A stretch of DNA of 64,000 bases from an uncultured SAR86 cluster bacterium (lineage in GTDB: Bacteria; Pseudomonadota; Gammaproteobacteria; Magnimaribacterales; D2472), in the NCBI GenBank assembly GCA_902593675.1, contig CACJJI010000001.1:256957-320956 (forward strand), read 5' to 3'. The translations under genes and the position numbers were made by a program. Below, piece by piece: positions 18,212 to 62,207 of this stretch. How positions within the stretch are numbered: the first letter of the stretch is position 1; every line of letters starts with the position of its first letter. Under the pieces are notes generated by a model, which made no database searches, was not told the origin of the DNA, and saw nothing but the letters and a program-made list of their open reading frames with translations.

Positions 18212-19501
18212 TTAAGCTAGAAGTTGAATCATAACTCCAGCAGCAACAGCTGAGCCAATTACCCCAGCCACATTAGGTCCCATGGCGTGCATAAGCAAAA
18301 AATTCTGGGAGTCGCTCTCTAAGCCTACTTTATTAGCTACTCTTGCAGCCATTGGCACTGCTGAAACGCCCGCCGCTCCAATGAGAGGGTTAATTTTATT
18401 AGCACTTAATAAATTCATCATTTTTGCCATCAAAATTCCTGAGGCTGTACCAATTGAAAAAGCAATTATTCCAAGCGAGAGAATTCCAAGAGTTTCAGGC
18501 GTAAGAAATTGATCTGCAGCGAGTTTAGATCCAACAGCTAAACCTAAAAAAATTGTAACGATATTGATTAAAGAATTTTGAACAACTTCACTCAATCTTT
18601 CGACAACCAAAGACTCCCTCATTAAATTACCAAAACAGAACATGCCAATTAATGGAGCGGCACTTGGCAACATCATGCCAACCAGAAAGACCAAGATTAT
18701 TGGAAAAATTATTTTTTCTTTTTGAGAAACTTCCCTTAATTGAACCATTCGAATAGTTCTTTCAGAGTGAGAAGTAAGAAATCGCATAATTGGAGGCTGG
18801 ATTAATGGTACCAATGCCATATAAGAATATGCAGCTACCGCAATAGCACCTAGAAGTTCTGGAGCTAAAATCGATGAAACATAAATTGCCGTTGGACCAT
18901 CTGCTCCGCCAATAATACCCGTTGCTGCTGCTTGCTTTAAAGTAAATGAAACTACCCCAAGCTTATTCAAAAGCAAGGCACCAATAACCGTTGCGAAAAT
19001 ACCAAATTGAGCTGCAGCGCCTAATATTAATGTCTTAGGATTAGCCAGCATTGGACCAAAATCAGTCATTGCGCCTACACCCATGAAAATAACTAGAGGT
19101 GCAACTCCTGAACCAATTGCCACAGAGTAAAATGTATTTAAAATACCTGCTTTATATCCAAGCTCTGCTGCGTATTCATTTAATAGCCATAACTGAGAAT
19201 GGGAAGCAGTTTTAAGGAATGCAGAGAGGGATTCAGCGTCCCCAATAGAGATTAAGGATAAGGCTCCAGCTAATTCATCAGGATTTGAAAAATAAATTAA
19301 TTTTTCAACTGGACTAAGGGCAAGGCCAATTTCTGGAATATTTGTGAGAATAGCTCCAAAACCAATAGGTAAAAGCAAAAGTGGTTCAAATTTTTTATTT
19401 ATAGCTAAATATAGAATTAACAAACCGACCACGAGCATAATTGCTTGGCCAGAAGTGAGGCTAAAGAAGCCTAAACTAGAGAAAATTGCTTCAAGATTCA
19501 T
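18212..19501 (-). CDS. oadB: Oxaloacetate decarboxylase Na+ pump, beta subunit
   Basis: 429-aa polytopic protein with OadB/GcdB/MmdB family blocks ([34 protein letters not shown]). Confidence 0.9.
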
Positions 19502-21255
19502 TAGCTTTTAATTTCAAATAAAGGATTGCCTGGTTTAACGGTATCTCCTGGCTTGACGAATATTTTTCCAATAACTCCAGCGCTAGGTGCTTTTATTTCT
19601 GTTTCCATTTTCATGGCCTCTAAAATTAAAACTGTCGTATCTGCATCTACAGACTCACCTTCTGAAATAATTGTTCTAAAGATGTTTCCTCCCAAAGGCG
19701 CTTCGATAACTGTTCCCGTTCCAGCTGCAACGGAGGGAGAAGATACAACTTCATTGATGGATGAACCATCATTAATCGTCACTGAATTGTCAGCCTTTAA
19801 GGTAACTGAATATTCATGATCATCTACTGTTACAAGATATGAAGAATCGGTAAGCTCATGAATTTCCAAAGGCTCAGATTCAAAAAATTCAGGGTTATCG
19901 ACATTTTCAATATAATTCATCCCAATTTCAGGAAACATTGCATATATAAGAACATTTTCGATCGATGGTTCGGCATTAATATTTTTTTCAGCAACAACTT
20001 TTTTAAATTCTTCTTCTACTGACTGAAAATCATCACTCAGCAAGTCAGCTGGCCTGCATGTAATAACTGCGCCATCTCCAATTCCCTCTTGCTGCAAATC
20101 CTTGTTAACTGGTGCAGGGGTTGCGCCATATTCTCCTTTCAACAAAGACTTGACTTCATTGGTCACTGTTGAATACCTAGATCCCGACAGTATATTGATC
20201 ACAGATTGAGTGCCTACAATCTGAGAGGTTGGAGTAACCAATGGAATAAATCCTAAATCCTCTCTTACTTTTGGAATTTCATGAATCACCTCATCAAACC
20301 TCTCAATAGAGTCTTGAGCTTTAAGTTGATTTTCAAGGTTTGTTAACATCCCGCCTGGTACCTGAGAGGCCAATATACGTGCGTCAACACCGCGCAGTGA
20401 CCCTTCAAAATTCTTATACTTTCTTCTAACTTTTTGAAAATGCTCAGCTACGGGGGTTAATTTTTCTATATTTAGACCAGTCTCTCTATTAGTTCCATCC
20501 AATATACTAATCAATGTTTCAGTGGGTGTATGACCATAGGTCATGCTCATTGAAGAAATTGATGTATCTATATTGTCTAAGCCAGCTTCAATTGCTTTAA
20601 CACCGGTTGCAACAGACATGCCCGTGGTTGCATGACAATGCATATGAATCGGAATTTCAAGTTCATCTTTCAATCTTGAAACCAGCTCAAATGCTACATA
20701 TGGCTTTAATAACCCAGCCATATCTTTAATAGCTAAAGAATGTGCTCCCATATCTTGAATGTTTTTTGCAAGATCAAGCCATAAATCAATAGTGTGAACC
20801 GGGCTAGTAGTATATGAAATGGTGCCTTGAGCGTGACCCTCTACTGCAATAACAGCTTGCAGGGCTTGATGCATATTTCTTGGATCATTCAGGGCGTCAA
20901 ATACCCTAAATACATCAACACCATTTTTTTTAGAACATTCAACAAATTTATTAACAACATCGTCAGAGTAATGTTTATAACCTAATAAATTTTGACCCCT
21001 TAGAAGCATTTGCTGAGGAGTATTTGGCATCATTGACTTAATTTTTCTGATTCTTTCCCAGGGATCCTCACCTAGATATCTGATACAGGAATCAAATATC
21101 GCGCCGCCCCATGATTCAACTGACCAAAAACCAACGCTATCAAGATCTTTTAATGCAGCTTCCATGTCATGGTACCTAAATCGAGTAGCAAGCAATGATT
21201 GATGAGCATCTCTTAAAACTACTTCTGTAACTCCAATTGTCTTAGAATCTGTCAT
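19501..21255 (-). CDS. oadA: Oxaloacetate decarboxylase alpha subunit (carboxyltransferase + biotinyl domain)
   Basis: TIM-barrel carboxyltransferase ([17 protein letters not shown]) and a C-terminal biotin attachment motif EAMKME. Confidence 0.9.
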
Positions 21256-24860: not shown

Positions 24861-25475
24861 TTATTTAACCCTTAACTTTCCAGGCTTTGAATCCCGACGT
24901 AAAGCCTTCAAAAATGAATTAGCTTCAACAGGCTTAGCCACATCATTGTCACGAATATAATCAGCACTCCAAAACTCTTTCCAAGAAGGGAATAAATCAT
25001 GAAAATATCCCGCATAATTTTCCTGACCTGGCCAACGCATTTTTTGATCACCAAGAGGAGGCTTATTTAGATCGGTTGCGTACCAATACATTGGTAATCT
25101 TTTTTTAAAAAGCCATCTTCCATCCACTCTGTTGTAGGTATCCCAATACAACATTTGCATAATCACCCATTCCGTCTCAGTTTCATGCTCGTTTTTTGAA
25201 TAGACCAACCCAATGGCAGAATCGGGGGAATCAAAATCTATAATGTGGTTTCCAATTTGATGCGAGGTGCCGGTAAATTGATCTCTAAATGTTGCATCGG
25301 CCCACTCTTTTAATGCCTGCCTTCCAACCTTATCTTTTCCAACTCTTACATCAGGGACGAATAAATTAACGTGCATATCTAAATCACGCATGTCTAAAGT
25401 TACAGAGTACTTAGCAGCAAGCTGTCTAATTTCATCCAGCGATTCCAGCCTATCCAATCTTGCTTCAATGCTCAT
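24861..25475 (-). CDS. NTF2/SnoaL-like fold protein
   Basis: N-terminus (DEIRQLAAKYSVTLDMRD) and the DGRWLFKKR strand are typical of SnoaL_4/NTF2-like proteins. Function unknown. Confidence 0.55.
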   Translation of the reverse strand: MSIEARLDRLESLDEIRQLAAKYSVTLDMRDLDMHVNLFVPDVRVGKDKVGRQALKEWADATFRDQFTGTSHQIGNHIIDFDSPDSAIGLVYSKNEHETETEWVIMQMLYWDTYNRVDGRWLFKKRLPMYWYATDLNKPPLGDQKMRWPGQENYAGYFHDLFPSWKEFWSADYIRDNDVAKPVEANSFLKALRRDSKPGKLRVK

Positions 25476-26012: not shown

Positions 26013-26519
26013 TTATTTAAATATAGAGCCTACTGATACCACAAGCAAGGCTAAAGCAATGGCCCATAATGAACAAGCGATGACATCAGCCACATAGAAC
26101 CTCTTAAGTCTTAAATCAGTAATTCCTAATAAAAAAGGAACTAAGGGTCGTATTGCCGGGATAAATCTTCCAACCAGAACTGTGTAGGGACCAAAACGCT
26201 CTAAAAATTCTTGAGTTTTATTAATTGGCTTTTGACGTTTTTGCATAAACTTTGAGTTAAGAAGGCTTGGACCAATAGATTTTCCAACTAAAAAACCGCA
26301 TACATCACCCACATGTGAACCAAGCAAAGCAATGCCACAAATCCAAGGGAGGGTTAACAATTCAATGTTGTAAAGATAGATGCATAAAGAAAAAAGAACA
26401 GCACTTGGCATAAAGCTTCCGGTAATAATCATTGATTCCATAAAGCCAAACAAAAAAACAAGCACCCAACCATATTCAGGGTTGGTTTCTAAAAAGAGTT
26501 GGATTCTTTCAAAAGACAT
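26013..26519 (-). CDS. DedA/SNARE-associated family membrane protein (short)
   Basis: GRFIPAIRPLVPFLLG motif and the overall TM layout of DedA proteins. Confidence 0.75.
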   Translation of the reverse strand: MSFERIQLFLETNPEYGWVLVFLFGFMESMIITGSFMPSAVLFSLCIYLYNIELLTLPWICGIALLGSHVGDVCGFLVGKSIGPSLLNSKFMQKRQKPINKTQEFLERFGPYTVLVGRFIPAIRPLVPFLLGITDLRLKRFYVADVIACSLWAIALALLVVSVGSIFK

Positions 26520-26521
26520 AG

Positions 26522-27265
26522 TTATTTATTTTTTTTAGCAAAAAATTTTTCTACTGCTTTCATATTGTCCTCTGAGCCAAACAGTTTTTTCATGGCTGCA
26601 GTTTCCATGGATCGAGATTTAGCAATATCTTCTTGCATGAAGGATTTTAATATAGCTTTGGTCTCAATGATTGAACTTAGTGATTGTTCTTTGAGCATAT
26701 GAGCATATTTGTTTGCCTCATCTAAAAAATCCTCGCCAACATATTTAGCCAAACCTAACTCATGATATCTATTGCCATCTATTGGCTGAGATTCAAATAG
26801 CAGTTGTGCAGCTTGTTGATATCCTAGAGATTGAAATAGCAAAAAAGAGCTGCCCACTTCAGGAGCCAATCCTAGATCAGAGAATGGATATTTGATTTTT
26901 GCATTGGGAGCAATGAAGACAGCATCAAAATGCAAAAGAATTGTTGCACCACCCCCTACAGCTGCACCCTCCACAGCTCCAATTAAGGGCTTTTTGAAGT
27001 TAATCAATGCATCGATGCATGTTTCAAAGGGCTCTTCATATTCAGCGCCTCCATCCCCCATCATGCTGCTTAAATCAACCCCGGATGAAAAAGTATTTGA
27101 GGACCCTGTTACCACTACTGAAAAAATATCTGGATCGTCACTTGCGGAATTTAATGCATCTCTAAAAAGACCCCATAATTCTGCATCAAATGCATTTTTA
27201 GTCTCTGGACGATTCAATACAAGGGTGCGAACACCCTTATTGGTTTCAACTAAAAGTTTGCTCAC
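26522..27265 (-). CDS. Enoyl-CoA hydratase/isomerase (crotonase) family protein
   Basis: Crotonase fold (VLNRPETKNAF, TFSSGVDL, AVEGAAVGGG). Confidence 0.8.
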   Translation of the reverse strand: MSKLLVETNKGVRTLVLNRPETKNAFDAELWGLFRDALNSASDDPDIFSVVVTGSSNTFSSGVDLSSMMGDGGAEYEEPFETCIDALINFKKPLIGAVEGAAVGGGATILLHFDAVFIAPNAKIKYPFSDLGLAPEVGSSFLLFQSLGYQQAAQLLFESQPIDGNRYHELGLAKYVGEDFLDEANKYAHMLKEQSLSSIIETKAILKSFMQEDIAKSRSMETAAMKKLFGSEDNMKAVEKFFAKKNK

Positions 27266-28059
27266 TTTCCTTTAAAGTTTGGTTTTCTTTTTTCAGCAAA
27301 GGCAGTTAATCCTTCCATCATGTCTTCTGTAGAAAAAATTGGTTGGCCTATTTCAAGTTCTTTTTCTAGAGCCTCAGCCTCTGTATAGCTTTCATCAATC
27401 TCACGCAGTGATTTAACAATGGCTTGAATAGATAAAGGAGCATTTTCACTTACAGTTTCAGCAATCTCCATGGCTTTTTCTAAGGCTTCTCCGTCTTCTA
27501 CAACATGTCCAATCAAGCCAAATCTTAAGGCTTCATCGGAGGAAATTCGTCTACCAGTTAATAAAGCTTCGGCTGCAAGGGTATATGGAATTTGACGTCT
27601 AAGTCTGACAGTAGAACCACCCAATGGAAATAAACCTCTAAGAGGTTCTGATAGACCAAATACTGCACTTTTACCGGCAACTCTAATATCAGTTCCTTGT
27701 AAAATCTCTGTCCCGCCAGCAAGAGCAAAACCCTCCACAGCAGCAATGATTGGTTTGGTTGGTCTGTTATGGCGAAGCAAAGATTGCCAATGCAGATCAG
27801 GAATCTCCTTAAGCTTCTCCATCATGTCAGAATCTTCATTACCATCTTTCATAGCGCTTAAATCAGCGCCAGAACAAAAGGTTCCTCCAGCTCCGGTTAA
27901 AACAGCGCAACGTAAGTTGGGATCTTCATCGAGCTTTCGCCAGGCTTCATAAATAGTTACAAGCATGCCTGGACTCAAAGCATTTCGTTTTTCAGGGCGA
28001 TTAAGTGTAATCACCATAATATGGCCTTGTTCTTCTACTATCGCATGATCTGTATTCAT
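27262..28059 (-). CDS. Enoyl-CoA hydratase (crotonase family)
   Basis: TLNRPEKRNAL, TFCSGADL, AAVEGFALAGGTE. A canonical Glu-containing oxyanion-hole region is present. Confidence 0.85.
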   Translation of the reverse strand: MNTDHAIVEEQGHIMVITLNRPEKRNALSPGMLVTIYEAWRKLDEDPNLRCAVLTGAGGTFCSGADLSAMKDGNEDSDMMEKLKEIPDLHWQSLLRHNRPTKPIIAAVEGFALAGGTEILQGTDIRVAGKSAVFGLSEPLRGLFPLGGSTVRLRRQIPYTLAAEALLTGRRISSDEALRFGLIGHVVEDGEALEKAMEIAETVSENAPLSIQAIVKSLREIDESYTEAEALEKELEIGQPIFSTEDMMEGLTAFAEKRKPNFKGK

Positions 28060-28072
28060 AAAACTCTCCTAA

Positions 28073-29221
28073 CTAATCAAGTGATGATGAGACTATCCAC
28101 ATCGCAAAAAATTGTGCAGCACCACCGTATGCATGACCCATTGCAACTTTAGCATCTTCAACTTGATGATCCTCTGCCAATCCCATGACTTGAAGTGCAG
28201 CCTCACCAAATCTAATCATCCCAGATGCGCCAATTGGATTGGAAGATAAAACTCCACCAGACATATTAAATGGAAGCTCGCCATCAATTGCGGTTGCATC
28301 TTTATCTGTTAGCTTCCAACCTTCCCCTAAATCACAAAATCCAAGATTCTCTAACCACATTGGCTCATACCAGGAAAACGGGACATAGATCTCAGCACAA
28401 TCTATTTCATTAAATGGATTTTGAATACCTGCTTGATTGTAAATATCTTTTGCACAATCAATTCCAGCTTGAGGATTTACTTCATCTCTACCAGCTGACA
28501 AAGTACCTTCTGATCTAACGGCCATACCTTTTATCCAAGCAACATTTCTTGAACCAACTTGGTCTTGCGCGGTAATGACCATCGCACATGCACCATCAGA
28601 GGATGGGCAACTTTCAAGATAGCGTAAAGGCTCCCAGAGCATGGGGGTATCACTGACCATTTTTTCATCAATGCCAGGAATATGAAGGTGAGCTAAGGGA
28701 TTTTTTAGTGCATTCTGGCGATCTTTGGCTGCTACTTTCCAACCAATATGCTCTGGCGCTTCATATCTACGAATATATTCCCTAATGAAAGGAGCAAAGT
28801 AGCCGCCAGCTCCTGCATTAATATGGGGAGAATATGGATATCTTGGTGATAGAGCCCATGTAGCATTTGATTCAGATTGTTTCTCGAAAGTTACCGTTAA
28901 AACCGTCTTAAACTGACCAGAGCAAATATGCGAAGCAGCAATCACCGCGGTGCTTCCTCCAACACTGCCAGCAGTATGAACTCGCAATACAGGTTTACCC
29001 ACAGCTCCAATTGCATCAGCTAAATATAATTCCGGCATAATGACGCCTTCAAACATGTCTGGCGCCTTGCCTAAGATCACCGCATCAATAGCATCCCATT
29101 CGAGATTGGCTGCTAGCATGGCATTATCAATGGCTTCTCTTACCAATCCGGCCATGGAAACATCACGTCTCTTAGCATCGTATTTTGTCTGCCCAACCCC
29201 TATTACACCTGCTTGAATCAT
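28073..29221 (-). CDS. Thiolase-fold protein, SCP-x/Ltp-like, apparently lacking the nucleophilic Cys
   Basis: SCP-x-type layout (GVGQTKY.., FEKQS, NMSGGVLSSNPIGASG, GHAYGGAA). The start is placed at the ATG at 29221, forming an ATGA overlap with the upstream gene. By hand alignment the nucleophile position falls in HTAGSVGG (Gly/Ser), and the GHP His is Asn. Confidence 0.75.
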   Translation of the reverse strand: MIQAGVIGVGQTKYDAKRRDVSMAGLVREAIDNAMLAANLEWDAIDAVILGKAPDMFEGVIMPELYLADAIGAVGKPVLRVHTAGSVGGSTAVIAASHICSGQFKTVLTVTFEKQSESNATWALSPRYPYSPHINAGAGGYFAPFIREYIRRYEAPEHIGWKVAAKDRQNALKNPLAHLHIPGIDEKMVSDTPMLWEPLRYLESCPSSDGACAMVITAQDQVGSRNVAWIKGMAVRSEGTLSAGRDEVNPQAGIDCAKDIYNQAGIQNPFNEIDCAEIYVPFSWYEPMWLENLGFCDLGEGWKLTDKDATAIDGELPFNMSGGVLSSNPIGASGMIRFGEAALQVMGLAEDHQVEDAKVAMGHAYGGAAQFFAMWIVSSSLD

Positions 29222-30273
29222 TTTTGGGCCTCCAAATGAACTAACATGTTGTGTTGAAGACAAGGGCCAGAAGTTGCATGGGCCAAACCATGCGTAAATT
29301 GATTTTCTTTCAGTGCCTCATAGGTCTTGCCGATTGCATCAAGCCCTGCACACATCATTACGTTCCCGACTAATGGGCCGCCTGAAAGGTTGACTGGAAC
29401 ATCTTGAAGATTTAATAAAGATTTTAAAAAAGGTAGTTCATGACTAAATTGGGTATGTAATTCAGCAACTTCAAACTTTATATTTTTTAAATTTAATTGG
29501 TTCATTGAAGCTTGCAAAGTGTTAGAAGCAGCAAGATTCCTAGAGCCTAGATTTGATGATTCAATTCTGTGATCAATGCCCTCTATCCAAATAGGATGAT
29601 CTGTAAATTCATAAGCTTTTTCTTCTGATGCAATAATCATCGCAGAAGAACCATCAGAAATTGGTGGGCAATCTAACTGATTTAATGGGGAAGATACCAT
29701 TGCATTATTTAGATAATCTGACTCATTAATTAAGTCAGTGATTAAGGCGTTCTTGTTATTTTTTGAATTAGCTCTTGCCTCAATGACTGTCGCAAGCATT
29801 TGCTCTGGTGTAATGATATTTTGATCAAGTAGAACTCTAGCTTGCAGAGCCGCTAAACTCACTCGATCAGGCCATAAAGGAGAAATATAGTATGGATCCA
29901 TTTGCAGTGAAATAATTGCATCTAAATCTCCAGGCGATGATTTACCAAATCCATAAATTAAAGCTGTCTCAGCATCACCCATTTGAATTTTTAACATTGA
30001 TTCATACATGGCCCATGCTGCATCCATTTCTACGTGAGATTCTTTAATTGGTGGATTGGTTTGAATGGCAGACAAACCCTCAACAAAAGCAAAAGCCGCT
30101 CCTTGTAGATAATCACAACTGCCAGAGCAGGTAAAATCAATATCCTTTTGGCTGATTCCCAAATCATTAAATAGCTGGTGCACTACTGGCATAATCAGCT
30201 CAACTTCATTCAAAGCTCCTGCATTTTTTAATATTGGATGTTGAGCATACCCAACGATAGCAACTCTTTTCAT
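29218..30273 (-). CDS. Thiolase-fold protein, SCP-x/Ltp-like, apparently lacking the nucleophilic Cys
   Basis: VAIVGYAQHP N-terminus, a GFGKSS block (equivalent to GxEKM), and NLSGGPLVGN. By hand alignment the nucleophile position falls in VEMDAAW (Ala). Confidence 0.7.
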   Translation of the reverse strand: MKRVAIVGYAQHPILKNAGALNEVELIMPVVHQLFNDLGISQKDIDFTCSGSCDYLQGAAFAFVEGLSAIQTNPPIKESHVEMDAAWAMYESMLKIQMGDAETALIYGFGKSSPGDLDAIISLQMDPYYISPLWPDRVSLAALQARVLLDQNIITPEQMLATVIEARANSKNNKNALITDLINESDYLNNAMVSSPLNQLDCPPISDGSSAMIIASEEKAYEFTDHPIWIEGIDHRIESSNLGSRNLAASNTLQASMNQLNLKNIKFEVAELHTQFSHELPFLKSLLNLQDVPVNLSGGPLVGNVMMCAGLDAIGKTYEALKENQFTHGLAHATSGPCLQHNMLVHLEAQK

Positions 30274-30770
30274 GATTCTTGGAACCTCAAGGTTGCAACA
30301 TCTACATCTGGTTCATCGATAGGAGCAAACCATTTAATATTCTCTAAAGAATGAGTCCACTCTTCTTTAGGCTTCCAAACGGCTTGAATACGCATCCCTA
30401 TTCTAATTTCTTCAATTTCAACTTCTTGAATAAGGTGTAAAAATGAAATATTTGCTCCATCTAATCTAATCATGGCGCATACATATGGAGGTACAATAGG
30501 ATTTCCTGGAATGGGAATGTGCACCACAGTAAATGACTCTATGCAGCCTTTATCAGTCAGCGGGACCTCAATATCAGTTGCAACTCCGCATCGGGGACAG
30601 CTACCTCTTGGTGGCACATACACAGCCTTGCATTTAGGGCAAGCTTGACCAACGATGTTACCCTCTTTAACTTGATTTAAAAATCTTGTTGTTGCCGAAC
30701 CAGCCGTATAGAAATATTCTAAATTAATCGGTGATTCTGAGTAGTCTTTTGGTGTATCTTCTGAGCTCAT
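30270..30770 (-). CDS. DUF35 OB-fold protein with N-terminal rubredoxin-like zinc ribbon
   Basis: CPKC-x13-CPRC zinc ribbon followed by an OB-fold (GCIESFTVVH..MIRLDG..IGMRIQAVW). Confidence 0.8.
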   Translation of the reverse strand: MSSEDTPKDYSESPINLEYFYTAGSATTRFLNQVKEGNIVGQACPKCKAVYVPPRGSCPRCGVATDIEVPLTDKGCIESFTVVHIPIPGNPIVPPYVCAMIRLDGANISFLHLIQEVEIEEIRIGMRIQAVWKPKEEWTHSLENIKWFAPIDEPDVDVATLRFQES

Positions 30771-31222
30771 TTTTCTATAGTAAAAAATTTAATATCTGTA
30801 ATTCTTTGCTCTTGGATTTCGGACCAATTAGCTTTAACTCTTGAGCCAATACTCAAATCAGCCTCTTTGCATTGCCCAACCATGTGCAACATAGAGGTAT
30901 CAGCTCCATCAAGCTTGATTAAAGCAAAGGCAAAAGGCTCTTTAATTAAATGGTGATGTTGAGGGTTCTCAATCCAGGAAAAGGATTCAACCACTCCACC
31001 AGGACCAACCTCAACCATTTCTTTTAAGGGCTCATTAGTTTCGGGATCAAATTCAGCGGCAGGAGAAAAAACCTTACCAGCGGTACTTTTTGTTCCTAAA
31101 ATTTTTTGCTGACCTAGAGCTTCAAAAAATTTAGACATAACAGGTCCGCTTGAGCGCTTGTAGTTGTATGCAAGCTCAAAGGGGGCTCTTAGCAAATCTT
31201 TTGAATCACTCATCTTCTTCAA
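30767..31222 (-). CDS. DUF35-like OB-fold protein with degenerate (Cys-less) zinc ribbon
   Basis: Same length class and OB-fold pattern as its neighbour (GVVESFSWI..LIKLDG..IGSRVKANW). The region equivalent to the CxxC..CxxC ribbon contains no Cys. Confidence 0.55.
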   Translation of the reverse strand: MKKMSDSKDLLRAPFELAYNYKRSSGPVMSKFFEALGQQKILGTKSTAGKVFSPAAEFDPETNEPLKEMVEVGPGGVVESFSWIENPQHHHLIKEPFAFALIKLDGADTSMLHMVGQCKEADLSIGSRVKANWSEIQEQRITDIKFFTIEK

Positions 31223-32870
31223 CCATTGTATTTTTAGATGTATCTATTAAAACATGTTTCATTAATTTCCCAGAAGCATTTCTTGGTAAAGGTGTATCAA
31301 TTATTTTCCATTTAGAAGGTACTTTAAAATCCGCTAAATCTTTACCAACCCATACTGATAATTCAGAATCACTCAACTGAGAATTTTTAGTTGATACTAT
31401 CGCCATAACTTCTTGGCCCAAATCATCATGGGGTATACCAATCACAGCTGATTCCTCAACATCTTTATGAGAATCTAAAATTAATTCAATCTCTTGAGGA
31501 TAAACATTCTCAGCACCTCTTAAAATAAGATCTGTCCGTCTTGATGAGATGAAATAAAGCGAGCCTTTCTTATACCCCCAGTCTCCAGTGCGTAACCACC
31601 TATCACTAGTAAGAGCAGCCGCAGATGCTTCTGGGTTATTGTAATAACCAAGCATAACCGAGGGACTTTGGACATATATCTCACCTTCTACAGAATCTGC
31701 TGTAACTTTCTTACCCTCTTCATCTCTTAATTCAATTTTAATACTCGGCATGGATTGTCCGGGAGAAGAAGGTTCCTCTTTGAGGGTTTCCCCCCAATTA
31801 ATAATAGTTATAGCGCCTGATTCAGTGAGCCCGTAACCATAACCAAAACTGTACTCTGAGTTAGGGAAAACTCCCTTTGTCCTTTCGATTAGTTCAGGAG
31901 GCATAGGAGCTCCACCGCCACCAACAACTAAGACACTTTCAAGTTGCAAGCTTTTAGCTTCAGCCTCATCTAACAATCTCTTAAGCGCTGTTGGAACAGC
32001 CCCGCCCCAAGAGGTAACACTAAATTTTTGTATTAATTTAATTACCTTATCTGCTAAAAATCTTCCGTCATAAACCAGGGTTGTAGAGCCTGCAAATAAG
32101 CTGGTTACAGCACCTGCTGATAAACCAGAAACATGAAATAGAGGAGATGTGAGTAAGCTGGTTGGGGTGTTCTTTGACCAATCAATCCCGTAACTTGATG
32201 AATGTTGAGAAACAGCTGCACCTTGAAGCATCTGTAATGTTGAATTAGCGATCATGGATCGATGCGAGGTCATCACACCCTTAGGCGTTCCTGTTGTCCC
32301 TGAGGTATATAAAAGACAAGCACACTCATCTTCATCTATACGAACAAAAGACTTTAGTTCTTGTTCATATGAAGTTAAATCTAAATCCTCAAAAATTAAG
32401 GTTGGATGTTTTACTTGATCAGCAATTCTGTCAAACCTTTTTTGATCGCAAACTATTACATTAGGATCAGCAGCATCTATGGCCTTGATAGCTTCCGAGC
32501 CTTTCCACCACCCATTCAAACCACAAGCGATCGCACCAATGCTCACAGTAGCCCAGAAAAATATAATCCATTCAGGACAATTAGCAGCATAAATAGCAAC
32601 CCTGTCTCCAGGCTTAACATTATGTTGTGATTGCAAAATATGAGCTGCTTTTTTTACCAATGTTAGATGTTGCGTAAAACTGATAACTTTATCTTGATAG
32701 ATCAAATAAGGTTTTTCGCCATGACTTGCAGACAGCTCAATAAAATCCACCAATGATCTAGGTCGATTTTTAAAAACATCCATTTCTACACCAAGAACAT
32801 TTTCTCGATGAATTTCAAAAAAAGATTGGCTCTCTACTAGGGCTTGTATATATTTGTCAGAATGCATCAT
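31206..32870 (-). CDS. Acyl-CoA synthetase (AMP-forming, ANL superfamily)
   Basis: LLYTSGTTGTPKGV AMP-binding motif, YGLTE, TGDWGY, and a terminal PRNASGKLMK. Confidence 0.9.
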   Translation of the reverse strand: MMHSDKYIQALVESQSFFEIHRENVLGVEMDVFKNRPRSLVDFIELSASHGEKPYLIYQDKVISFTQHLTLVKKAAHILQSQHNVKPGDRVAIYAANCPEWIIFFWATVSIGAIACGLNGWWKGSEAIKAIDAADPNVIVCDQKRFDRIADQVKHPTLIFEDLDLTSYEQELKSFVRIDEDECACLLYTSGTTGTPKGVMTSHRSMIANSTLQMLQGAAVSQHSSSYGIDWSKNTPTSLLTSPLFHVSGLSAGAVTSLFAGSTTLVYDGRFLADKVIKLIQKFSVTSWGGAVPTALKRLLDEAEAKSLQLESVLVVGGGGAPMPPELIERTKGVFPNSEYSFGYGYGLTESGAITIINWGETLKEEPSSPGQSMPSIKIELRDEEGKKVTADSVEGEIYVQSPSVMLGYYNNPEASAAALTSDRWLRTGDWGYKKGSLYFISSRRTDLILRGAENVYPQEIELILDSHKDVEESAVIGIPHDDLGQEVMAIVSTKNSQLSDSELSVWVGKDLADFKVPSKWKIIDTPLPRNASGKLMKHVLIDTSKNTMVEEDE

Positions 32871-33031
32871 TGGGATTTTACTATCTTATAAATGCATCCA
32901 TCAATCAACGAGTATCGACTAGATTTTTTTTGTCAATGATTCTAAAAAATATTCCAACATTGTTCGTGAACTCATGATTCGTTATAGTTGATTAGATACA
33001 ATGAAAGAACTAAATTTTATATAGAAAGATC

Positions 33032-33796
33032 ATGGCAGATAAAAACACACGGCCATTAGCTGTAATCACAGGTGGCGCCTCAGGCATTGGCTTAAGTACG
33101 GTGAAGCGATTTTTAGATGAGGGCTATGAAGTACTGATACTCGATGCTAATAAAGATGCGGGAGAGAAATCAGTAAATAACCTTAAATCAGATACTTGCA
33201 ATATTAATTTTGCACATATCGATATTACAAACCATGCTCAAATAGATTCAGTTTTTGCCGACTTGCATGCTAACAATCGTCCAGCCCATGTACTAGTGAA
33301 TTGTGCCGGTATCAGCCCCGCCTTGAACCCCTTGCATCAATATTCAGTGGAGGAATGGCATAGAACCATCGATATTAATTTGCATGGTACTTTTTATGCC
33401 TGTCGAGAGTTCTTAAAACTGGCAACTGAGCAAAAGATTGATGCAGGAGCAATTGTAAATGTTGCCTCGATCATGGGAGTAAGAGCGAGTGGAGCCCAAG
33501 CACCCTATGCAGCATCGAAGCATGCAGTGGTGGGTTTAACCAAATCAATCGCTCAAGATTATGCCACCATGAACATCAGAGCCAATGCCATTGGTCCAGG
33601 TGTCATTGATACACCCATGAATACCGAATTAATGAAAGATGAAAACATCATGCAATACATGCTGCAACGCATTCCCATGAATCGAGTTGCAACATCAGAC
33701 GAAGTAGCCAACTTAATTTATTTCTTAGCATCATCCGAAGCATCTTATATAACTGGATCCTACTACCCTATTGATGGTGGGTATCTTGCAAGCTGA
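33032..33796 (+). CDS. Short-chain dehydrogenase/reductase
   Basis: TGGASGIG, NCAG, YAASKHA, PGVIDTP. Confidence 0.9.
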   Translation: MADKNTRPLAVITGGASGIGLSTVKRFLDEGYEVLILDANKDAGEKSVNNLKSDTCNINFAHIDITNHAQIDSVFADLHANNRPAHVLVNCAGISPALNPLHQYSVEEWHRTIDINLHGTFYACREFLKLATEQKIDAGAIVNVASIMGVRASGAQAPYAASKHAVVGLTKSIAQDYATMNIRANAIGPGVIDTPMNTELMKDENIMQYMLQRIPMNRVATSDEVANLIYFLASSEASYITGSYYPIDGGYLAS

Positions 33797-34610
33797 TATT
33801 TTTACCAACAAAACTGCTTTAATCACTGGCGCTGCCAGTGGCATTGGCAGAGGCCTAGCATTGCATGCTGCAAAACTTCAAATGAATGTTGTCTTAATGG
33901 ACCTCAACGCAGATGGTTTAAATGAGACCCATAGCCTTATGACTGAGTGTCCTTCCATGATCATCCATTGCGATGTATCTAACTTAGAAGACTTTTCAAA
34001 AGCGAAAGAAAAAATTGCAAGTGAGTTTGGCACAGTTCATTTCCTGTTTAATAACGCAGGAATCTTTTTAGAAGGTCGAGCCTGGAAAGCAGACCAAAAA
34101 AACTGGCAACGAATTATTGATGTAAATTTGATGAGTGTCATTTATGGCTTAAATCTGTTTGTTGATGAAATGGTTGCCAGCCAAGAGCGTTGTCACATTA
34201 TCAATACATCATCCATGGCAGGTATCATCGTTGGCCCTGCCCTTGCTCCTTATACAACCACTAAGCATGCAGTTGTCGGTTTAACCCGAACCTTGCACGA
34301 GGACCTAGCAGACAATGACAAAGTGGGAGTATCTGTGCTTTGCCCTGGATTAGTTCAAACCAACATCATTGAAAGAGATCACCTTGGCTTAGATCTTGAT
34401 GAATCCTCAATTGACCAACACGAAAGCGCCAAGAATAATGCTCAATGGCTTGCTGATGGTGTTAAAGAAGGCATGAGTCCTGAAGACTTAGCTACCATTG
34501 TTTTTAAGAAAATTGAAAACAATGAATTTTGGATATTGACTCATCCAGAGTTCGTAGGAGTTTACTCAGGTTACTCAACAGAACTTATTGAATCATCAAC
34601 CAAAGAATAA
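33771..34610 (+). CDS. Short-chain dehydrogenase/reductase
   Basis: TGAASGIG, NNAG, YTTTKHA. The start is ambiguous (ATG 33771/33774, GTG 33777, TTG 33786) and overlaps the upstream SDR. Confidence 0.85.
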   Translation: MMVGILQADIFTNKTALITGAASGIGRGLALHAAKLQMNVVLMDLNADGLNETHSLMTECPSMIIHCDVSNLEDFSKAKEKIASEFGTVHFLFNNAGIFLEGRAWKADQKNWQRIIDVNLMSVIYGLNLFVDEMVASQERCHIINTSSMAGIIVGPALAPYTTTKHAVVGLTRTLHEDLADNDKVGVSVLCPGLVQTNIIERDHLGLDLDESSIDQHESAKNNAQWLADGVKEGMSPEDLATIVFKKIENNEFWILTHPEFVGVYSGYSTELIESSTKE

Positions 34611-41192: not shown

Positions 41193-41660
41193 GTTTCTAT
41201 AAACAGAAATAATTTCATATCGATTTTCTGAAAATTCAATATCAATTGAGTCAATTATTATGCTTGGATGACTGGCAATTGTTTCTAAAAATTGAGCGCT
41301 ATTTTCAATACTCTGCTGAGTGAAAGAGAAGAACTGCTTTTCATTGTCTTCAAAAGTTTTAAGATTAAAAATTTCACTTAATTTCGCTTGAGAGTTTATA
41401 AAATCCTCTACTGAAGATGCCTGTTTAATAATTTGTTGAGTATTTTGGTAAATTAAAGCGGCATTAGCTTTTTCAAACACATAATAAAAATCATCTTTTG
41501 ACCTCTCCAGAGCTTTGCTTTGATAAGCAATAGAACTATATGCATTATTAAAATACGCGCCCAATAACACCAATATAAAAATTGCAAGAACTATCAGAAG
41601 CAAGAATCTCTCTCTTCGCTCACGAGCATTCCAAAAATCTGCTAGCTTGCTAAGTTTCAT
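41187..41660 (-). CDS. gspM: Type II secretion system protein M
   Basis: N-terminus FWNARERRERFLLL followed by one TM helix, and the last position in the gsp operon. The start is taken at the ATG at 41660, overlapping gspL by 11 nt. Confidence 0.65.
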   Translation of the reverse strand: MKLSKLADFWNARERRERFLLLIVLAIFILVLLGAYFNNAYSSIAYQSKALERSKDDFYYVFEKANAALIYQNTQQIIKQASSVEDFINSQAKLSEIFNLKTFEDNEKQFFSFTQQSIENSAQFLETIASHPSIIIDSIDIEFSENRYEIISVYRNL

Positions 41661-42819
41661 ATTGCACCAGTAAGTTACCAAAGAAACCCTCATCTTTTTC
41701 TATCAGATCAGACTCTATAAAATTGAGCTCTTCTGATTTCAATATTTGCTTTAATAGATTTAATTTCAAGGGCGGCAGCCCTTCCAAGCGAATATTAATT
41801 TCTTGTTCTTTGAGATTAATAGCAATCCTTTGAATTGAATCATCCTTGAATGCATCCAAGTAATTCAACACACCAAAATCTTGCTTTGAAATATTATTTT
41901 GCTGAGGAATATTTCTTGTTAAATCATCAATCTGAGCACGCGCATTAACCAATCTTTTAAAATTAGGGTTGAGTTGTTCAAAGATTTTTACAGTGCTTTG
42001 TTTGTAGGTATTCACGGATGAGTTTAAATTGTAGGAAATAACTAATGGTGCTATCAAAAATATGAGAGCTGAGATATTTAGAGCCCAGAATTCAAAAAAA
42101 TTAAATTTTAATTTCTGTTTAATATAATGAAATGATATTTTTCTTTTAAAGAAATTTACATTATTAAATTTAAGAGTGTTTATAAAACTAATATGAAAGT
42201 CAGAAAATTGTATTTTTTTAAAATTTAAATCTTGAAATTTATTTAAAAGTACAGGCTCTGACTCACCTAAAGCTTGAAGCGCTTTTAAATCTATGCCGGC
42301 AGATACCAAAATTTGTAGATAATCTTCTAGCGAATCATTGGAGCCGCTAAATCCAGTGAAATCTTTAAATGAACAAATGAAGTTCTGCTCACCAACATAA
42401 ATAGAATTGATTCCCTCAGGTAATAAAAAATGTTCGGGATAAAAATAAACATCTCCCTCATACTCATTAAAAGGCTCGGCAATAGAATTATAGGTGTTGT
42501 AATTAATCCAAGCTGCTAGATTTAAACTAGGCTGAAAAAAGAATTTTAGATCTGAGACATTACTGATAAGACCATCCTCAGACTCACTAAAAATGTTTGC
42601 TTTTAAAATATCATTCTTTAATCCAGTCTCGTTGCGAGTGACCTTGAATCCGAATAGCGCAGAAGGGATCATGATATAAAGATTATTGCCAGGTAATAGT
42701 GCTTCATTAGCCTCTATTACACTGTATTTCTTAACTTGCTTTGCACCACTCTCGTCATATGTAAAAAGCCTAACAGTAGATAGGCATAGATCATCGAATT
42801 TAATAAAGTAATTGATCAT
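41650..42819 (-). CDS. gspL: Type II secretion system protein L
   Basis: 389 aa with a cytoplasmic domain, a single TM helix (ISALIFLIAPLVISY) and a periplasmic domain. Positioned between gspK and gspM. Confidence 0.65.
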   Translation of the reverse strand: MINYFIKFDDLCLSTVRLFTYDESGAKQVKKYSVIEANEALLPGNNLYIMIPSALFGFKVTRNETGLKNDILKANIFSESEDGLISNVSDLKFFFQPSLNLAAWINYNTYNSIAEPFNEYEGDVYFYPEHFLLPEGINSIYVGEQNFICSFKDFTGFSGSNDSLEDYLQILVSAGIDLKALQALGESEPVLLNKFQDLNFKKIQFSDFHISFINTLKFNNVNFFKRKISFHYIKQKLKFNFFEFWALNISALIFLIAPLVISYNLNSSVNTYKQSTVKIFEQLNPNFKRLVNARAQIDDLTRNIPQQNNISKQDFGVLNYLDAFKDDSIQRIAINLKEQEINIRLEGLPPLKLNLLKQILKSEELNFIESDLIEKDEGFFGNLLVQYET

Positions 42820-42824
42820 ATGTG

Positions 42825-45631: not shown

Positions 45632-45633
45632 AT

Positions 45634-48313: not shown

Positions 48314-48316
48314 AAA

Positions 48317-59814: not shown

Positions 59815-59826
59815 AGGAGAAAAAAA

Positions 59827-61446
59827 ATGAATTTAGATTTTGCGTCGGTTTGGGAAATGGTTTCAGATTTAGTGCCTGAAAATGATGCTTTGATATGTGG
59901 TGAAGATATTGTTTCATGGAAAGAATATGATGACAGAGCAAGTAAAATTGCATCTGCATTAAGTGAGGCTGGGCTTGGGGCTAATTCAAAAGCTGGGCTG
60001 TATTTAAACAACTCCAATGAATACCTAATTGCTCAATATGCAATTTTTAAAGTTGGTGGAATCCCAATCAATGTTAATTACCGTTATGTTGAGGAAGAAC
60101 TAATCTACCTGCTAGAAAACTCTGATGCTGAAGCAGTTTTTTATCATGCATGCTATAGCTCAAGAATAAAGGAAATTGCTGGATCTCTTCCTAATATCAA
60201 GGCTTGGATAGAAGTTTCAGATGGAACAGAGTCAAAATTTGATCAATCTTTAAAGTATCAAGATCTCTTGAGCCAGCATTCACCCATGAAAAGGATTCAT
60301 CGAGATCCTGAAACCATTTATATGCTTTATACCGGGGGTACAACTGGAATGCCTAAGGGTGTAATGTACAAACAAGGAGAGTTCCTTGTTTATCTTTTTA
60401 GAACACTTAAGGCAATGGGCTACGATGTTCCAGAAGATTTAAGTGACCTAGAATCAAGAATAGAAGCATCAAAATCCAGTAATGCATTCATAAGGAGTGT
60501 GGTTGGATGTCCTCTTATGCATGGAACAGGTATGTGGCTGGGTGCATTCTTGCCCCTGCTTCTCGGTGGCACTGCAATAACTACAAGCAATCTTGGTTTT
60601 GATCCAGATCAGTTATGGACTCAAGTTCAAAACAAAAAAGCAACGAACATTGTGATAGTTGGTGATGCATTTGCAAAACCGATGCTTGATGCATTAAATA
60701 GAGCCGCATCAGATGGTAATGCTTATGATATAAGTTCTGTACAGGTAATTATTTCAAGTGGTGTTATGTGGAGTGCCGAAGTGAAACAGGGGTTGTTACA
60801 GCATCATGATATGAGGTTAATGGATACCATGGGATCCACAGAAGGCGGAATGGGTGCCTCTGTAACAACAAGAGACAACCCCCCAGCCACAGCTAAATTC
60901 TCTCTTAATCCAGGTGTAATTGTTTTAGCGGATGATGGAGAAATTCTTTCTCCAGGATCTGAAAAAATAGGTCTGATTGGAACATCTGGTCTTGTTCCGG
61001 TTGGTTATTATAAAGATGAAAAAAAATCTGCCGAAACATTCAGAGAGGTTGATGGTGTCAGATATAGTTTTCCAGGCGACTATGCAAAACTTGAGGCAGA
61101 TGGAACAATTACTCTACTGGGTAGAGGAAGTAATTGCATAAATTCTGCAGGTGAAAAAATTTACCCTGAAGAGGTTGAAGAAGCATTAAAAAAAGATGCT
61201 TTGGTTTTTGATTGTCTGGTTGTTGGTATGCCAGATGAAAAATTTGGCCAAAAAATTGTAGCAGTGGTCTCAACTGTAGATAATCAGCAAGTTAATGAAG
61301 CTGAGTTGATTGAAAATACTAGAAAAATAATTGCTGGATACAAGCTGCCTAAAACTATTCTATTTGCCGACGAAGTTCAAAGAGCTCCCAATGGAAAAGC
61401 AAACTATAAATGGGCTAAAGCTTTTGCAGAAGAGCAATTAACATAA
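59827..61446 (+). CDS. Acyl-CoA synthetase (AMP-forming; YTGGTTG subtype)
   Basis: MLYTGGTTGMPKGV, GSTEGG, PGDYAK, and a terminal RAPNGKANYKW. Confidence 0.85.
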   Translation: MNLDFASVWEMVSDLVPENDALICGEDIVSWKEYDDRASKIASALSEAGLGANSKAGLYLNNSNEYLIAQYAIFKVGGIPINVNYRYVEEELIYLLENSDAEAVFYHACYSSRIKEIAGSLPNIKAWIEVSDGTESKFDQSLKYQDLLSQHSPMKRIHRDPETIYMLYTGGTTGMPKGVMYKQGEFLVYLFRTLKAMGYDVPEDLSDLESRIEASKSSNAFIRSVVGCPLMHGTGMWLGAFLPLLLGGTAITTSNLGFDPDQLWTQVQNKKATNIVIVGDAFAKPMLDALNRAASDGNAYDISSVQVIISSGVMWSAEVKQGLLQHHDMRLMDTMGSTEGGMGASVTTRDNPPATAKFSLNPGVIVLADDGEILSPGSEKIGLIGTSGLVPVGYYKDEKKSAETFREVDGVRYSFPGDYAKLEADGTITLLGRGSNCINSAGEKIYPEEVEEALKKDALVFDCLVVGMPDEKFGQKIVAVVSTVDNQQVNEAELIENTRKIIAGYKLPKTILFADEVQRAPNGKANYKWAKAFAEEQLT

Positions 61447-61470
61447 CAAATAAATACCCAGGCACAACCG

Positions 61471-62205: not shown

Positions 62206-62207
62206 AA

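Follow-up and report, generated by a model that had tools for sequence, protein, structure and literature searches.

A 64,000-nt stretch of contig CACJJI010000001.1 from an uncultured SAR86 cluster bacterium of the Magnimaribacterales (the window, in whose positions all coordinates are given) contains an operon on the - strand, positions 26522-32870, that is a marine counterpart of the actinobacterial Ltp3/Ltp4 gene set and not a new kind of system. The operon consists of seven tightly coupled open reading frames (ORFs), which encode an acyl-coenzyme A (acyl-CoA) ligase, two DUF35 proteins (DUF35a and DUF35b), two thiolase-fold proteins of 351 and 382 amino acids, and two crotonases. All of these ORFs are present where an original prediction, made from the letters of the DNA, had placed seven co-directional genes, and profile searches agree with the domain types that it gave them. 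The prediction had presented the operon as an uncharacterized module for which no substrate could be named. Neither description holds: the 382-aa and 351-aa proteins are orthologs of Ltp3 and Ltp4, the DUF35 pair is of the Rv3521 type, and the 265-aa crotonase is of the EchA19 type, while a reaction, aldol cleavage of the C24-C25 bond, has already been proposed for the orthologs (PMC6678751, PMC6273163, PMC6593523). We consider it likely that the operon encodes a SAR86 Ltp3/Ltp4 aldol-lyase together with helper proteins, and that it serves to remove the C24 alkyl branch of algal and plant sterols or acts on a similar 3-alkyl acyl-CoA. Orthology, synteny, residue patterns, and folds carry this assignment, and from them we infer the subunit contacts, the catalytic roles, and the substrate.

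Orthology and conserved gene order

Orthology was measured against the copies in Tsukamurella tyrosinosolvens, whereas the sets that have been studied experimentally are those of Rhodococcus and Mycobacterium tuberculosis. In the T. tyrosinosolvens record, the module lies within a canonical Mycobacteriales cholesterol cluster and comprises genes for a crotonase, an AMP-binding ligase, a 309-aa OB-fold protein, and two thiolase-domain proteins. The cluster also encodes an F420 oxidoreductase, a cytochrome P450, a steroid 3-ketoacyl-CoA thiolase, short-chain dehydrogenases (SDRs), an EchA20-type hydratase, and two CoA-transferase subunits. The Ltp3-like protein of SAR86 is 60% identical to the product of the gene at the Ltp3 position and the Ltp4-like protein is 42% identical to that of the gene at the Ltp4 position, in both cases over the full length. 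The M. tuberculosis set is formed by Rv3516 (echA19), Rv3515c (fadD19), Rv3521, Rv3522 (ltp4), and Rv3523 (ltp3), and the order of ltp4 followed by ltp3 is common to SAR86, Tsukamurella, and M. tuberculosis, with the order in the last taken from the literature (PMC6429209). Because the arrangement matches in Tsukamurella and M. tuberculosis and the 265-aa crotonase resembles EchA19, the module can be identified as an Ltp3/Ltp4 ortholog set. Among NCBIfam models, the Ltp3-like protein matches PRK08313 with 637.8 bits, above the cut-off of 514, and the Ltp4-like protein, which has no Pfam match, reaches 413.8 bits with the 'lipid-transfer protein' model PRK07937 (cut-off 419). The two proteins are paralogs, with an hhalign probability of 99.4%.

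The module is widespread. The Ltp3-like protein has thousands of homologs and is 65-70% identical to proteins from Halieaceae, Spongiibacteraceae, Zhongshania, Streptosporangiales, Acidimicrobiales, and Mycobacteriales, and at least 597 relatives occur among species-representative genomes. Within SAR86, the Ltp3-like protein is 99% identical, and the other operon proteins 93-99% identical, to those of the single-cell genome AG-447-M16, and three more genomes show synteny over the entire operon. We scored the order of the four core genes and the fusion of the DUF35 genes in 77 related loci that have both DUF35 genes (L002-L080). This survey of gene neighborhoods, which had been suggested as a check on the original prediction, found the order DUF35a-DUF35b-Ltp4-Ltp3 in all 77 loci, which belong to several phyla and span SAR86, Halieaceae, Spongiibacteraceae, Streptosporangiales, Acidimicrobiales, Mycobacteriales, and Polyangiaceae. 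Because the same core order recurs in every one of these loci, the four-gene arrangement is far beyond chance.

Thiolase-fold proteins without thiolase residues

The AlphaFold2 monomer model of the Ltp3-like protein (predicted template modeling score, pTM, of 0.86) has template modeling (TM) scores of 0.80-0.87 to SCP2 and archaeal thiolases, Ltp2, and Sal, and the model of the Ltp4-like protein, with a predicted local distance difference test score (pLDDT) of 82.8, has a TM score of 0.88 to the archaeal DUF35-associated thiolase 6et9 (6et9_C). In pairwise HMMER alignments with solved thiolases, Gly85 of the Ltp3-like protein (HTAGSVGG) stands opposite the nucleophilic Cys (EAACASGG in 7YVY), Asn328 opposite the His of the GHP motif, and Y279-V-P-F opposite the HDCF motif of SCP2 thiolases. 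In the Ltp4-like protein, the nucleophile loop has no Cys and is 2-3 residues shorter (a gap of 3 relative to 6esq and of 2 by hhalign); because of this difference in length the equivalent of the nucleophile is ambiguous, being Ala85 when aligned by hand and Met83 by hhalign. Asn304 occupies the GHP position of this protein and HTQF the HDCF position. The three residues of true thiolases, the nucleophilic Cys, the Cys of HDCF, and the His of GHP, are therefore absent from both proteins. The alignments and the thiolase-like models bear out the earlier claim of two Cys-less thiolase folds, including the replacement of the GHP histidine by Asn in each, and the profile alignment proposed to check it placed neither a Cys at the nucleophile position nor a C-terminal His/Cys pair in either protein. 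Of the nucleophile-position residues named earlier, Gly85 in the 382-aa protein stands, while for the 351-aa protein the lack of Cys stands and the equivalent residue may be Ala85 or Met83.

Published work on the aldolases Ltp2 and Sal provides a frame for these substitutions. In both enzymes a Gly replaces the thiolase nucleophile, with its backbone binding the substrate hydroxyl, the first-position Tyr of the motif (Y294DHF in Ltp2, Y302DCY in Sal) acts as the base, the proton donor is Tyr344 in Ltp2 and Cys304 in Sal, and the cleft is shaped by a DUF35 domain at the side of each subunit (PMC12329534). The Ltp3-like protein has a Tyr (Y279) at the position of the base, and the SAR86 Ltp4-like protein has His273 in its place. 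The catalytic acids of the two known enzymes are missing from the Ltp3-like protein, which has Asn328 at the site of Tyr344 (the GHP site) and Pro281 at the site of Cys304.

Conservation separates the two paralogs: averaged over orthologs, identity to the protein of the window is 0.69 for Ltp3 and 0.47 for Ltp4. The segments H82-T-A-G-S-V-G-G and Y279-V-P-F-S-W and the residue N328 are each invariant in 81 of 81 Ltp3 orthologs, as is the longer stretch Y-V-P-F-S-W-x-E-P-M, including Pro281. In Ltp4 orthologs the motif at the HDCF site varies, being HTQF or HAQF in SAR86 and actinobacteria, YAPF in Halieaceae, and HAPF elsewhere. A different segment of Ltp4, ESHVEMD(A/G)AW (residues 78-87), is nearly invariant among orthologs, and a role for its E78-D84 loop in catalysis or carboxylate binding is possible. 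Because Gly85 and Tyr279 are shared with Ltp2 and Sal and are invariant in the 81 orthologs, the Ltp3-like protein is probably the catalytic aldol-lyase subunit, with Tyr279 as the base and Gly85 at the nucleophile position, and the low conservation and drifting motif of the Ltp4-like protein make it probably the auxiliary subunit of a heterodimer. In the monomer model of the Ltp3-like protein, pLDDT falls below 50 in the invariant loops 54-61, 115-136, 199-207, and 324-329, which suggests that these conserved loops fold only against partner subunits.

A DUF35 pair with one zinc-less member

DUF35b has an intact CPKC..CPRC ribbon and an OB fold, and in the PDB it matches the DUF35 chains of 6esq, 6ok1 (ChsH2 DUF35), and 9myr. 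DUF35a matches OB_ChsH2_C alone in Pfam, and the detection of zf-ChsH2 in DUF35b only agrees with the earlier description of one degenerate and one intact-ribbon DUF35 protein. The two proteins are 28% identical, and Cys44, Cys47, Cys58, and Cys61 of the ribbon are replaced in DUF35a by Ser, Gly, Asp, and Thr. A CxxC..CxxC motif was found in none of 72 DUF35a orthologs, and in DUF35b orthologs Cys44, Cys47, and Cys58 are kept in ~95% of the proteins, with Cys61 being Asp in 23 of 73. Judging from these sequences, the loss of the zinc site in DUF35a is ancient and permanent.

DUF35a matches the N-terminal half of the 309-aa protein of Tsukamurella at 41% identity and DUF35b its C-terminal half at 48%, and by sequence the pair is a split form of the tandem-DUF35 gene at the Rv3521 position. 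In the literature that we found, the gene at this position appears only as a 'conserved hypothetical protein', and our literature search returned no link between an Rv3521-type DUF35 gene and Ltp3/Ltp4. The pair is fused into one ORF in 41 of the 77 loci, including those of Zhongshania, several Spongiibacteraceae, and most Streptosporangiales, and is split in the other 36, including those of SAR86, Halieaceae, and Acidimicrobiales. Because fused and split forms are scattered over the lineages, fusion or fission has evidently occurred repeatedly. We argue for a defined four-part assembly of Ltp3, Ltp4, DUF35a, and DUF35b because the DUF35 pair always co-occurs, is often fused, and lost the zinc site of DUF35a long ago; the hetero-oligomer with DUF35 partners that had been suggested earlier is accordingly judged likely, given the co-occurrence of the four-gene core.

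Crotonases and acyl-CoA ligases

The first crotonase, of 265 residues, has the EchA19 structures 6wyi and 4f47 as its best PDB matches (E = 1e-82) and is 53% identical to the product of the EchA19-position gene of Tsukamurella. It matches PRK07799 with 369.5 bits (cut-off 316) and the EchA19 model with 348 bits, below that model's cut-off of 400. The catalytic glutamates of rat enoyl-CoA hydratase are Glu144 and Glu164; both hydratase glutamates are present in the first crotonase, as E118 and E138, in motifs common to EchA19. When the second crotonase, of 247 residues, is aligned to the first, T108 stands opposite E118 and F128 opposite E138. It has Glu136 after a conserved Pro, shares GATIL and PF..LG..PE with PDB homologs that include the enoyl-CoA isomerases 2f6q and 4u18, and is predicted to be probably enoyl-CoA isomerase-like. 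Homologs of the second crotonase (34-40% identity) lie near the module in 12 gammaproteobacterial loci of the Cellvibrionales type and in one metagenome-assembled genome labeled Cryomorphaceae, and none was present in any actinobacterial locus among those compared. In Cellvibrionales, a nitroreductase-family gene lies between the EchA19-like and isomerase-like crotonases (L008 14033-15860, + strand; L017 13717-14442, + strand), and in Zhongshania a family III CoA-transferase gene is found there as well. The SAR86 operon has neither the nitroreductase nor the family III CoA-transferase gene.

The ligase encoded by the first gene of the operon has as its best NCBIfam match NF052580, CasG, with 546 bits (cut-off 750), the next family scoring 327 bits, and it has 60-98% identity only within SAR86 loci. 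By sequence it is CasG-like, of the steroid-24-oyl-CoA synthetase type, and not FadD19-like. None of the three ligases in the window is of the type of FadD19, a steroid-26-oyl-CoA ligase, as they have only 25-30% identity to the FadD19-position ligase of Tsukamurella. One of these, a PRK07798-type ligase outside the operon, was considered as a FadD19-type enzyme and rejected at 25% identity to the Tsukamurella FadD19-position protein.

Comparison with related systems

The actinobacterial Ltp3/Ltp4 set resembles that of SAR86 in the order of DUF35-DUF35, Ltp4, and Ltp3, in the EchA19-type hydratase encoded alongside, and in the lack of a catalytic Cys in both thiolase-like proteins. The SAR86 set differs in its split DUF35 genes, in its CasG-like ligase, in the added genes for an isomerase-like crotonase and a DedA protein, and in having all of its genes in one operon, with no steroid cluster around them, in a streamlined marine gammaproteobacterial host.

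Two structurally characterized aldolases are likewise related. The steroid C3 side-chain aldolase TcLtp2-ChsH2(DUF35) (6OK1) shares with the Ltp3-like protein the thiolase fold (TM score of 0.80), the Gly at the nucleophile site, and the Tyr that begins the motif. It has a bound DUF35 partner and performs a retro-aldol reaction on a hydrated steroid acyl-CoA, features that are likewise predicted for SAR86. The sequences are distant (E = 2.5e-13 over part of the chain), with YDHF in TcLtp2 and YVPF in the Ltp3-like protein, and with the acid Tyr344 of TcLtp2 corresponding to Asn328. In TcLtp2, the DUF35 domain is the tail of a MaoC hydratase and the enzyme is a homodimer, whereas SAR86 has free-standing DUF35 proteins and two paralogous thiolase-like subunits; the DUF35-on-MaoC-hydratase arrangement of Ltp2 and Sal (ChsH2 and Shy) is absent, the SAR86 hydratase being of the crotonase type. 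The bile-acid C5 aldolase CtSal-Shy(DUF35) (9MYR) also shares the thiolase fold (TM score of 0.80), the nucleophile-site Gly, and the position of the base Tyr. Further points in common are an amide at the position of Ltp2 Tyr344 (Gln in Sal, Asn in the Ltp3-like protein) and a DUF35 with a non-canonical ribbon, which in CtSal shapes the cleft and in SAR86 would do so. However, the essential acid Cys304 of CtSal corresponds to Pro281 in the Ltp3-like protein, the two belong to different clades, and CtSal produces an aldehyde from a secondary alcohol, whereas the product expected in SAR86 is a ketone from a tertiary alcohol.

The archaeal DUF35-associated thiolase 6ESQ/6ET9 (TM scores of 0.86-0.88) and BbsB (0.80-0.83) belong to the solved structures nearest in fold to both subunits and have an obligatory DUF35 zinc-ribbon/OB partner. 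Unlike the SAR86 pair, they are true thiolases with a Cys nucleophile and a His, and unlike the archaeal complex, the SAR86 module has no 3-hydroxy-3-methylglutaryl-CoA (HMG-CoA) synthase gene beside it. HMG-CoA lyase and the Liu and Atu routes are a functional analog, in which a beta-branch is removed by carboxylation, hydration, and retro-aldol-type cleavage. HMG-CoA lyase is a metal-dependent TIM-barrel enzyme with a fold unrelated to that of the thiolase-like aldolases, and in contrast to the Liu and Atu routes no carboxylase is linked to the SAR86 module.

Several Actinomadura/Spirillospora loci have other thiolase-like and DUF35 genes ~5 kb downstream of the module (L033 15292-17020, - strand). 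The L033 thiolase-like protein keeps a Cys in YAACASG, has a YDLS motif, and has GEA in place of GHP. The Actinomadura gene at L033 15292-16578 was considered as an Ltp2 ortholog and rejected, as it belongs to a different, Cys-retaining thiolase-like/DUF35 pair.

Proposed reaction and alternatives

According to a review that cites Wilbrink 2012, Ltp3-Ltp4 is a 'heteromeric aldol-lyase' acting on side chains of the campesterol and sitosterol type, in which it would cut C24-C25 after C26 oxidation, CoA activation by FadD19, delta-24(25) desaturation, C28 carboxylation, and hydration; the carboxylate remaining after cleavage then needs re-esterification with CoA (PMC6678751). The genes ltp3, ltp4, and fadD19 are essential for growth on branched-chain sterols and not on cholesterol, while loss of echA19 merely slows degradation (PMC6273163), and ltp3, ltp4, echA19, and fadD19 are upregulated 69-98-fold on phytosterol in a Mycobacterium (PMC6593523), with an induction of ~97-fold given for the orthologs. 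The retro-aldol logic of the original prediction would agree with the reaction proposed for these orthologs (PMC6678751).

By analogy, the SAR86 pathway would begin with conversion of a side-chain acid to its CoA ester. A 2-enoyl-CoA with a branch at the beta-carbon would then be made by a dehydrogenase encoded elsewhere or, alternatively, by the isomerase-like second crotonase from an existing double bond. At this point the published scheme places a carboxylation of C28, the branch carbon, which would require an enzyme not encoded in the operon. The EchA19-type crotonase would add water to give a tertiary 3-hydroxyacyl-CoA, and a complex of Ltp3, Ltp4, DUF35a, and DUF35b would cleave C25-C24, the C-alpha/C-beta bond, in a retro-aldol step, releasing propionyl-CoA and leaving a 24-oxo product. 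Re-activation of the free acid on the steroid may be the task of the CasG-like ligase. Within the complex, the backbone of Gly85 in the Ltp3-like protein would stand in for the thiolase nucleophile and Tyr279 would take the proton from the 3-hydroxyl, as do Tyr294 in Ltp2 and Tyr302 in Sal, with the proton donor being a third solution that is neither the Tyr of Ltp2 nor the Cys of Sal. The Ltp4-like paralog may widen or complete the active site, and the two DUF35 proteins could clamp the dimer, the zinc-less DUF35a reshaping one cleft.

Several observations weigh against this assignment. The Ltp3/Ltp4 reaction is itself a proposal that rests on genetics and expression in actinobacteria, because our literature search turned up no biochemical report on Ltp3/Ltp4, neither an assay of the enzyme nor a structure, for any organism. 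The equivalence of Tyr279 with Tyr294 of Ltp2 and Tyr302 of Sal is transitive, drawn by way of SCP2 thiolases and from PMC12329534. The operon ligase shares only 27% identity with its counterpart at the FadD19 position in Tsukamurella and is not a FadD19 ortholog. Profile searches found no acyl-CoA dehydrogenase in the array, as had been noted earlier, and none in the rest of the 64-kb window; a biotin carboxylase and a side-chain cytochrome P450 are also absent from the window. The Ltp4-like protein may not be a passive partner, given its near-invariant acidic/His motif E78-S-H-V-E-M-D84. Finally, in Zhongshania and Microbispora the module lies among unrelated genes with no steroid cluster, so that it may accept substrates beyond sterols.

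A 24-ketone would remain if the retro-aldol cleavage took place with no carboxylation before it. A Baeyer-Villiger monooxygenase and an esterase form a classical ketone-processing pair, and in Parahalioglobus pacificus genes for a Baeyer-Villiger-type flavin monooxygenase and an Abhydrolase_3 esterase adjoin the module (L017 3099-5965, - strand). A tblastn search of the window found no homologs of either.

The same retro-aldol chemistry could act in SAR86 on a branched lipid other than a sterol, such as an acid derived from phytol or isoprenoids, making the module a general 'beta-branch remover' like the Atu and Liu systems. This would fit an operon that stands alone, with no steroid ring-degradation genes in the 64 kb besides the missing cytochrome P450, dehydrogenase, and carboxylase, as well as the settings of the module between housekeeping genes in Zhongshania and in a small island with two ligases in Microbispora, and a published account in which SAR86 specializes in lipid beta-oxidation and carries phytanoyl-CoA dioxygenase genes (PMC11582366). 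However, the Ltp3-like protein is as close as 60% identity to a copy in a canonical cholesterol cluster, the hydratase is of the EchA19 type, the best family of the ligase is a steroid-24-oyl-CoA synthetase by 546 to 327 bits, and the only known phenotypes of the orthologs are sterol-specific (PMC6273163, PMC6678751, PMC6593523). We regard a non-sterol substrate as possible but unlikely.

The sterol assignment could also be carried further, to a self-sufficient SAR86 route for 24-methylene and 24-ethylidene sterols, the predominant sterols of the ocean, that consists of the ligase, the isomerase, EchA19, and a four-subunit aldolase with a third catalytic arrangement and perhaps a second site in Ltp4. 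Here, the CasG-like ligase would activate the acid and the isomerase-like crotonase would shift the delta-24(28) bond into conjugation, so that no acyl-CoA dehydrogenase would be needed; EchA19 would hydrate the conjugated bond and the four-subunit aldolase would cut C24-C25. Hydration of a pre-existing double bond via isomerization of delta-24(28), a bond common in algal sterols, is a speculation prompted by the isomerase-like crotonase and by the lack of a dehydrogenase, carboxylase, or cytochrome P450 in the window. We hold the complete self-sufficient route to be unlikely.

A further alternative is that both thiolase-fold subunits are catalytic, with Ltp3 performing the C24-C25 retro-aldol cleavage and the Glu/His/Glu/Asp loop of Ltp4 cutting C24-C28 of the resulting 3-oxo acid or ester, in which case one complex would remove both the isopropyl end and the branch. 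The (near-)invariance of E78-D84 in 78 Ltp4 orthologs despite a variable classical motif is consistent with this idea, as are the two successive C-C cleavages around C24 needed by the published scheme (PMC6678751), and the two ligases that flank the module in Streptosporangiales. On the other hand, Ltp4 has no nucleophile for thiolysis, its conservation is far below that of Ltp3 (0.47 compared with 0.69), an ordinary thiolase could perform the second step, and the pairing of an active with an inert subunit is described as common among steroid side-chain enzymes (PMC11321319). We regard two catalytic subunits as quite unlikely. That the pair are ordinary thiolases (SCP2-type, BbsAB-like, or archaeal) with residues misaligned by hand is extremely improbable and is refuted by the alignments: although the fold and the closest solved structures are those of true thiolases and homologs carry database names such as 'acetyl-CoA C-acetyltransferase', in profile and pairwise alignments alike the place of the nucleophile is taken by Gly85, that of the GHP His by Asn, and that of the HDCF Cys by Pro or Gln, the residues Gly85, Pro281, and Asn328 of the Ltp3-like protein are invariant in the 81 orthologs, and the scores with the BbsB model (87 bits, cut-off 750) and the acetyl-CoA acetyltransferase model (117 bits, cut-off 600) are low.

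Operon layout and genomic neighborhood

Table 1. Features of the operon and its surroundings, with positions in the 64,000-nt window.
Feature	Position	Strand	Domains, families, or basis
PRK07798-type acyl-CoA ligase	59827..61446	+	NF005863, 616 bits (cut-off 543)
Two divergent short-chain dehydrogenases, 254 and 279 aa	33032..34610	+	adh_short, adh_short_C2
AT-rich intergenic region, 161 bp, presumed promoter region	32871..33031	.	Between operon and divergent SDR genes
Acyl-CoA ligase, CasG-like, 554 aa, first gene of operon	31206..32870	-	AMP-binding and AMP-binding_C
DUF35a, OB fold without zinc ribbon, 148-151 aa	30767..31213	-	OB_ChsH2_C, 36.8 bits
DUF35b, zinc ribbon and OB fold, 166 aa	30270..30770	-	zf-ChsH2 and OB_ChsH2_C
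Ltp4-like thiolase-fold protein, 351 aa	29218..30273	-	PRK07937 (NCBIfam), thiolase PDB matches
Ltp3-like thiolase-fold protein, 382 aa	28073..29221	-	Thiolase_N and Thiolase_C_1, PRK08313
EchA19-type enoyl-CoA hydratase, 265 aa	27262..28059	-	ECH_1, EchA19 structures
Second crotonase, 247 aa, GTG start	26522..27265	-	ECH_1
DedA-family membrane protein, possible eighth cistron	26013..26519	-	Family by sequence reading

Successive genes of the operon overlap at most junctions. ATGA overlaps occur at three of them (30767-30770, 30270-30273, and 29218-29221) and a GTGA overlap joins the two crotonases (27262-27265). The 4-nt ATGA-type overlaps described earlier are confirmed at these four positions, one of them as GTGA, and not at the ligase/DUF35a junction, where the overlap is the 8-nt ATGAGTGA when the ATG at 31213 is taken as the start. 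This ATG is the likely start of DUF35a, the TTG at 31222 being merely the ORF-maximal one. The first crotonase gene (27262-28059) is preceded by a 13-nt spacer carrying AGGAG. The ATG of the DedA gene (26013-26519) is 2 nt past the stop of the second crotonase gene, and the DedA gene is translationally coupled to it and probably belongs to the same transcript as the operon. Its adjacency to the second crotonase gene is kept in the SAR86 loci L002, L003, and L005 and occurs in SAR86 only. A promoter and terminator scan, which gave one weak sigma-70-like match (32904-32875, - strand), was rejected as a sign of function because it returned fewer sites than shuffled controls.

The divergent SDR pair (33032-34610) encodes candidate hydroxyacyl-CoA or steroid dehydrogenases. 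Its synteny with the operon is kept in the SAR86 loci L002, L003, and L005 and partly in L006, and with 25-29% identity to the SDRs of the Tsukamurella cluster the two proteins are not orthologs of those enzymes. About 1 kb downstream of the operon, a gene for a 204-aa SnoaL_4/NTF2-like protein (24861-25475, - strand) is also kept in SAR86 synteny; ketosteroid isomerases belong to the same fold family.

The window contains a second group of genes of lipid or steroid type, at 53114-54817 (- strand) and 57366-63899 (+ strand). This group encodes another CasG-like ligase (398 bits), a KstD-family flavin adenine dinucleotide (FAD) protein that matches PRK07121.1-4 with 672 bits, above the cut-off, the PRK07798 ligase, two SDRs, and a GGT that is 45% identical to the GGT abutting the module in Parahalioglobus. 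A PRK07798-type ligase gene lies directly after ltp3 in Microbispora (L029) and Zhongshania, whereas in SAR86 it is ~27 kb away, and the SAR86 ligase (59827-61446) shares 38.5% identity with its Zhongshania counterpart at that place (L008). From these sequence comparisons, the second group looks like former neighbors of the module displaced by ~27 kb in SAR86. Elsewhere, the window holds genes for the alpha and beta subunits of a Na+-translocating oxaloacetate decarboxylase and a type II secretion cluster (18212-21255, - strand; 41650-50158, - strand).

Implications for sterol catabolism and for SAR86

Among the C-C cleaving steps of sterol side-chain catabolism, that of Ltp3/Ltp4 is the only one for which our literature search found no assay or structure, and industry depends on it, since mycobacteria are used to turn phytosterols into steroid synthons. 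The comparison presented here documents across phyla a four-part system of two thiolase-like paralogs and a DUF35 pair, tandem or split, with one zinc-less half. It identifies Tyr279 of the invariant YVPF motif as a testable catalytic residue, and suggests a third catalytic solution for thiolase-fold aldolases, beside those of Ltp2 and Sal.

SAR86 and the OM60 group (Halieaceae) were earlier predicted to be marine steroid degraders (PMC4810484), and genes for sterol side-chain degradation have been reported as widespread in SAR86 (PMC11582366). The module fits recent claims, drawn from genomes, that membrane lipids and sterol side chains serve SAR86 as food. The intact gene set that SAR86 and Halieaceae carry implies an ability of abundant marine bacteria to handle C24-alkylated algal sterols. 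If the self-sufficient route were true, SAR86, which is among the most abundant heterotrophs of the ocean, would be a specialized consumer of algal sterol side chains.

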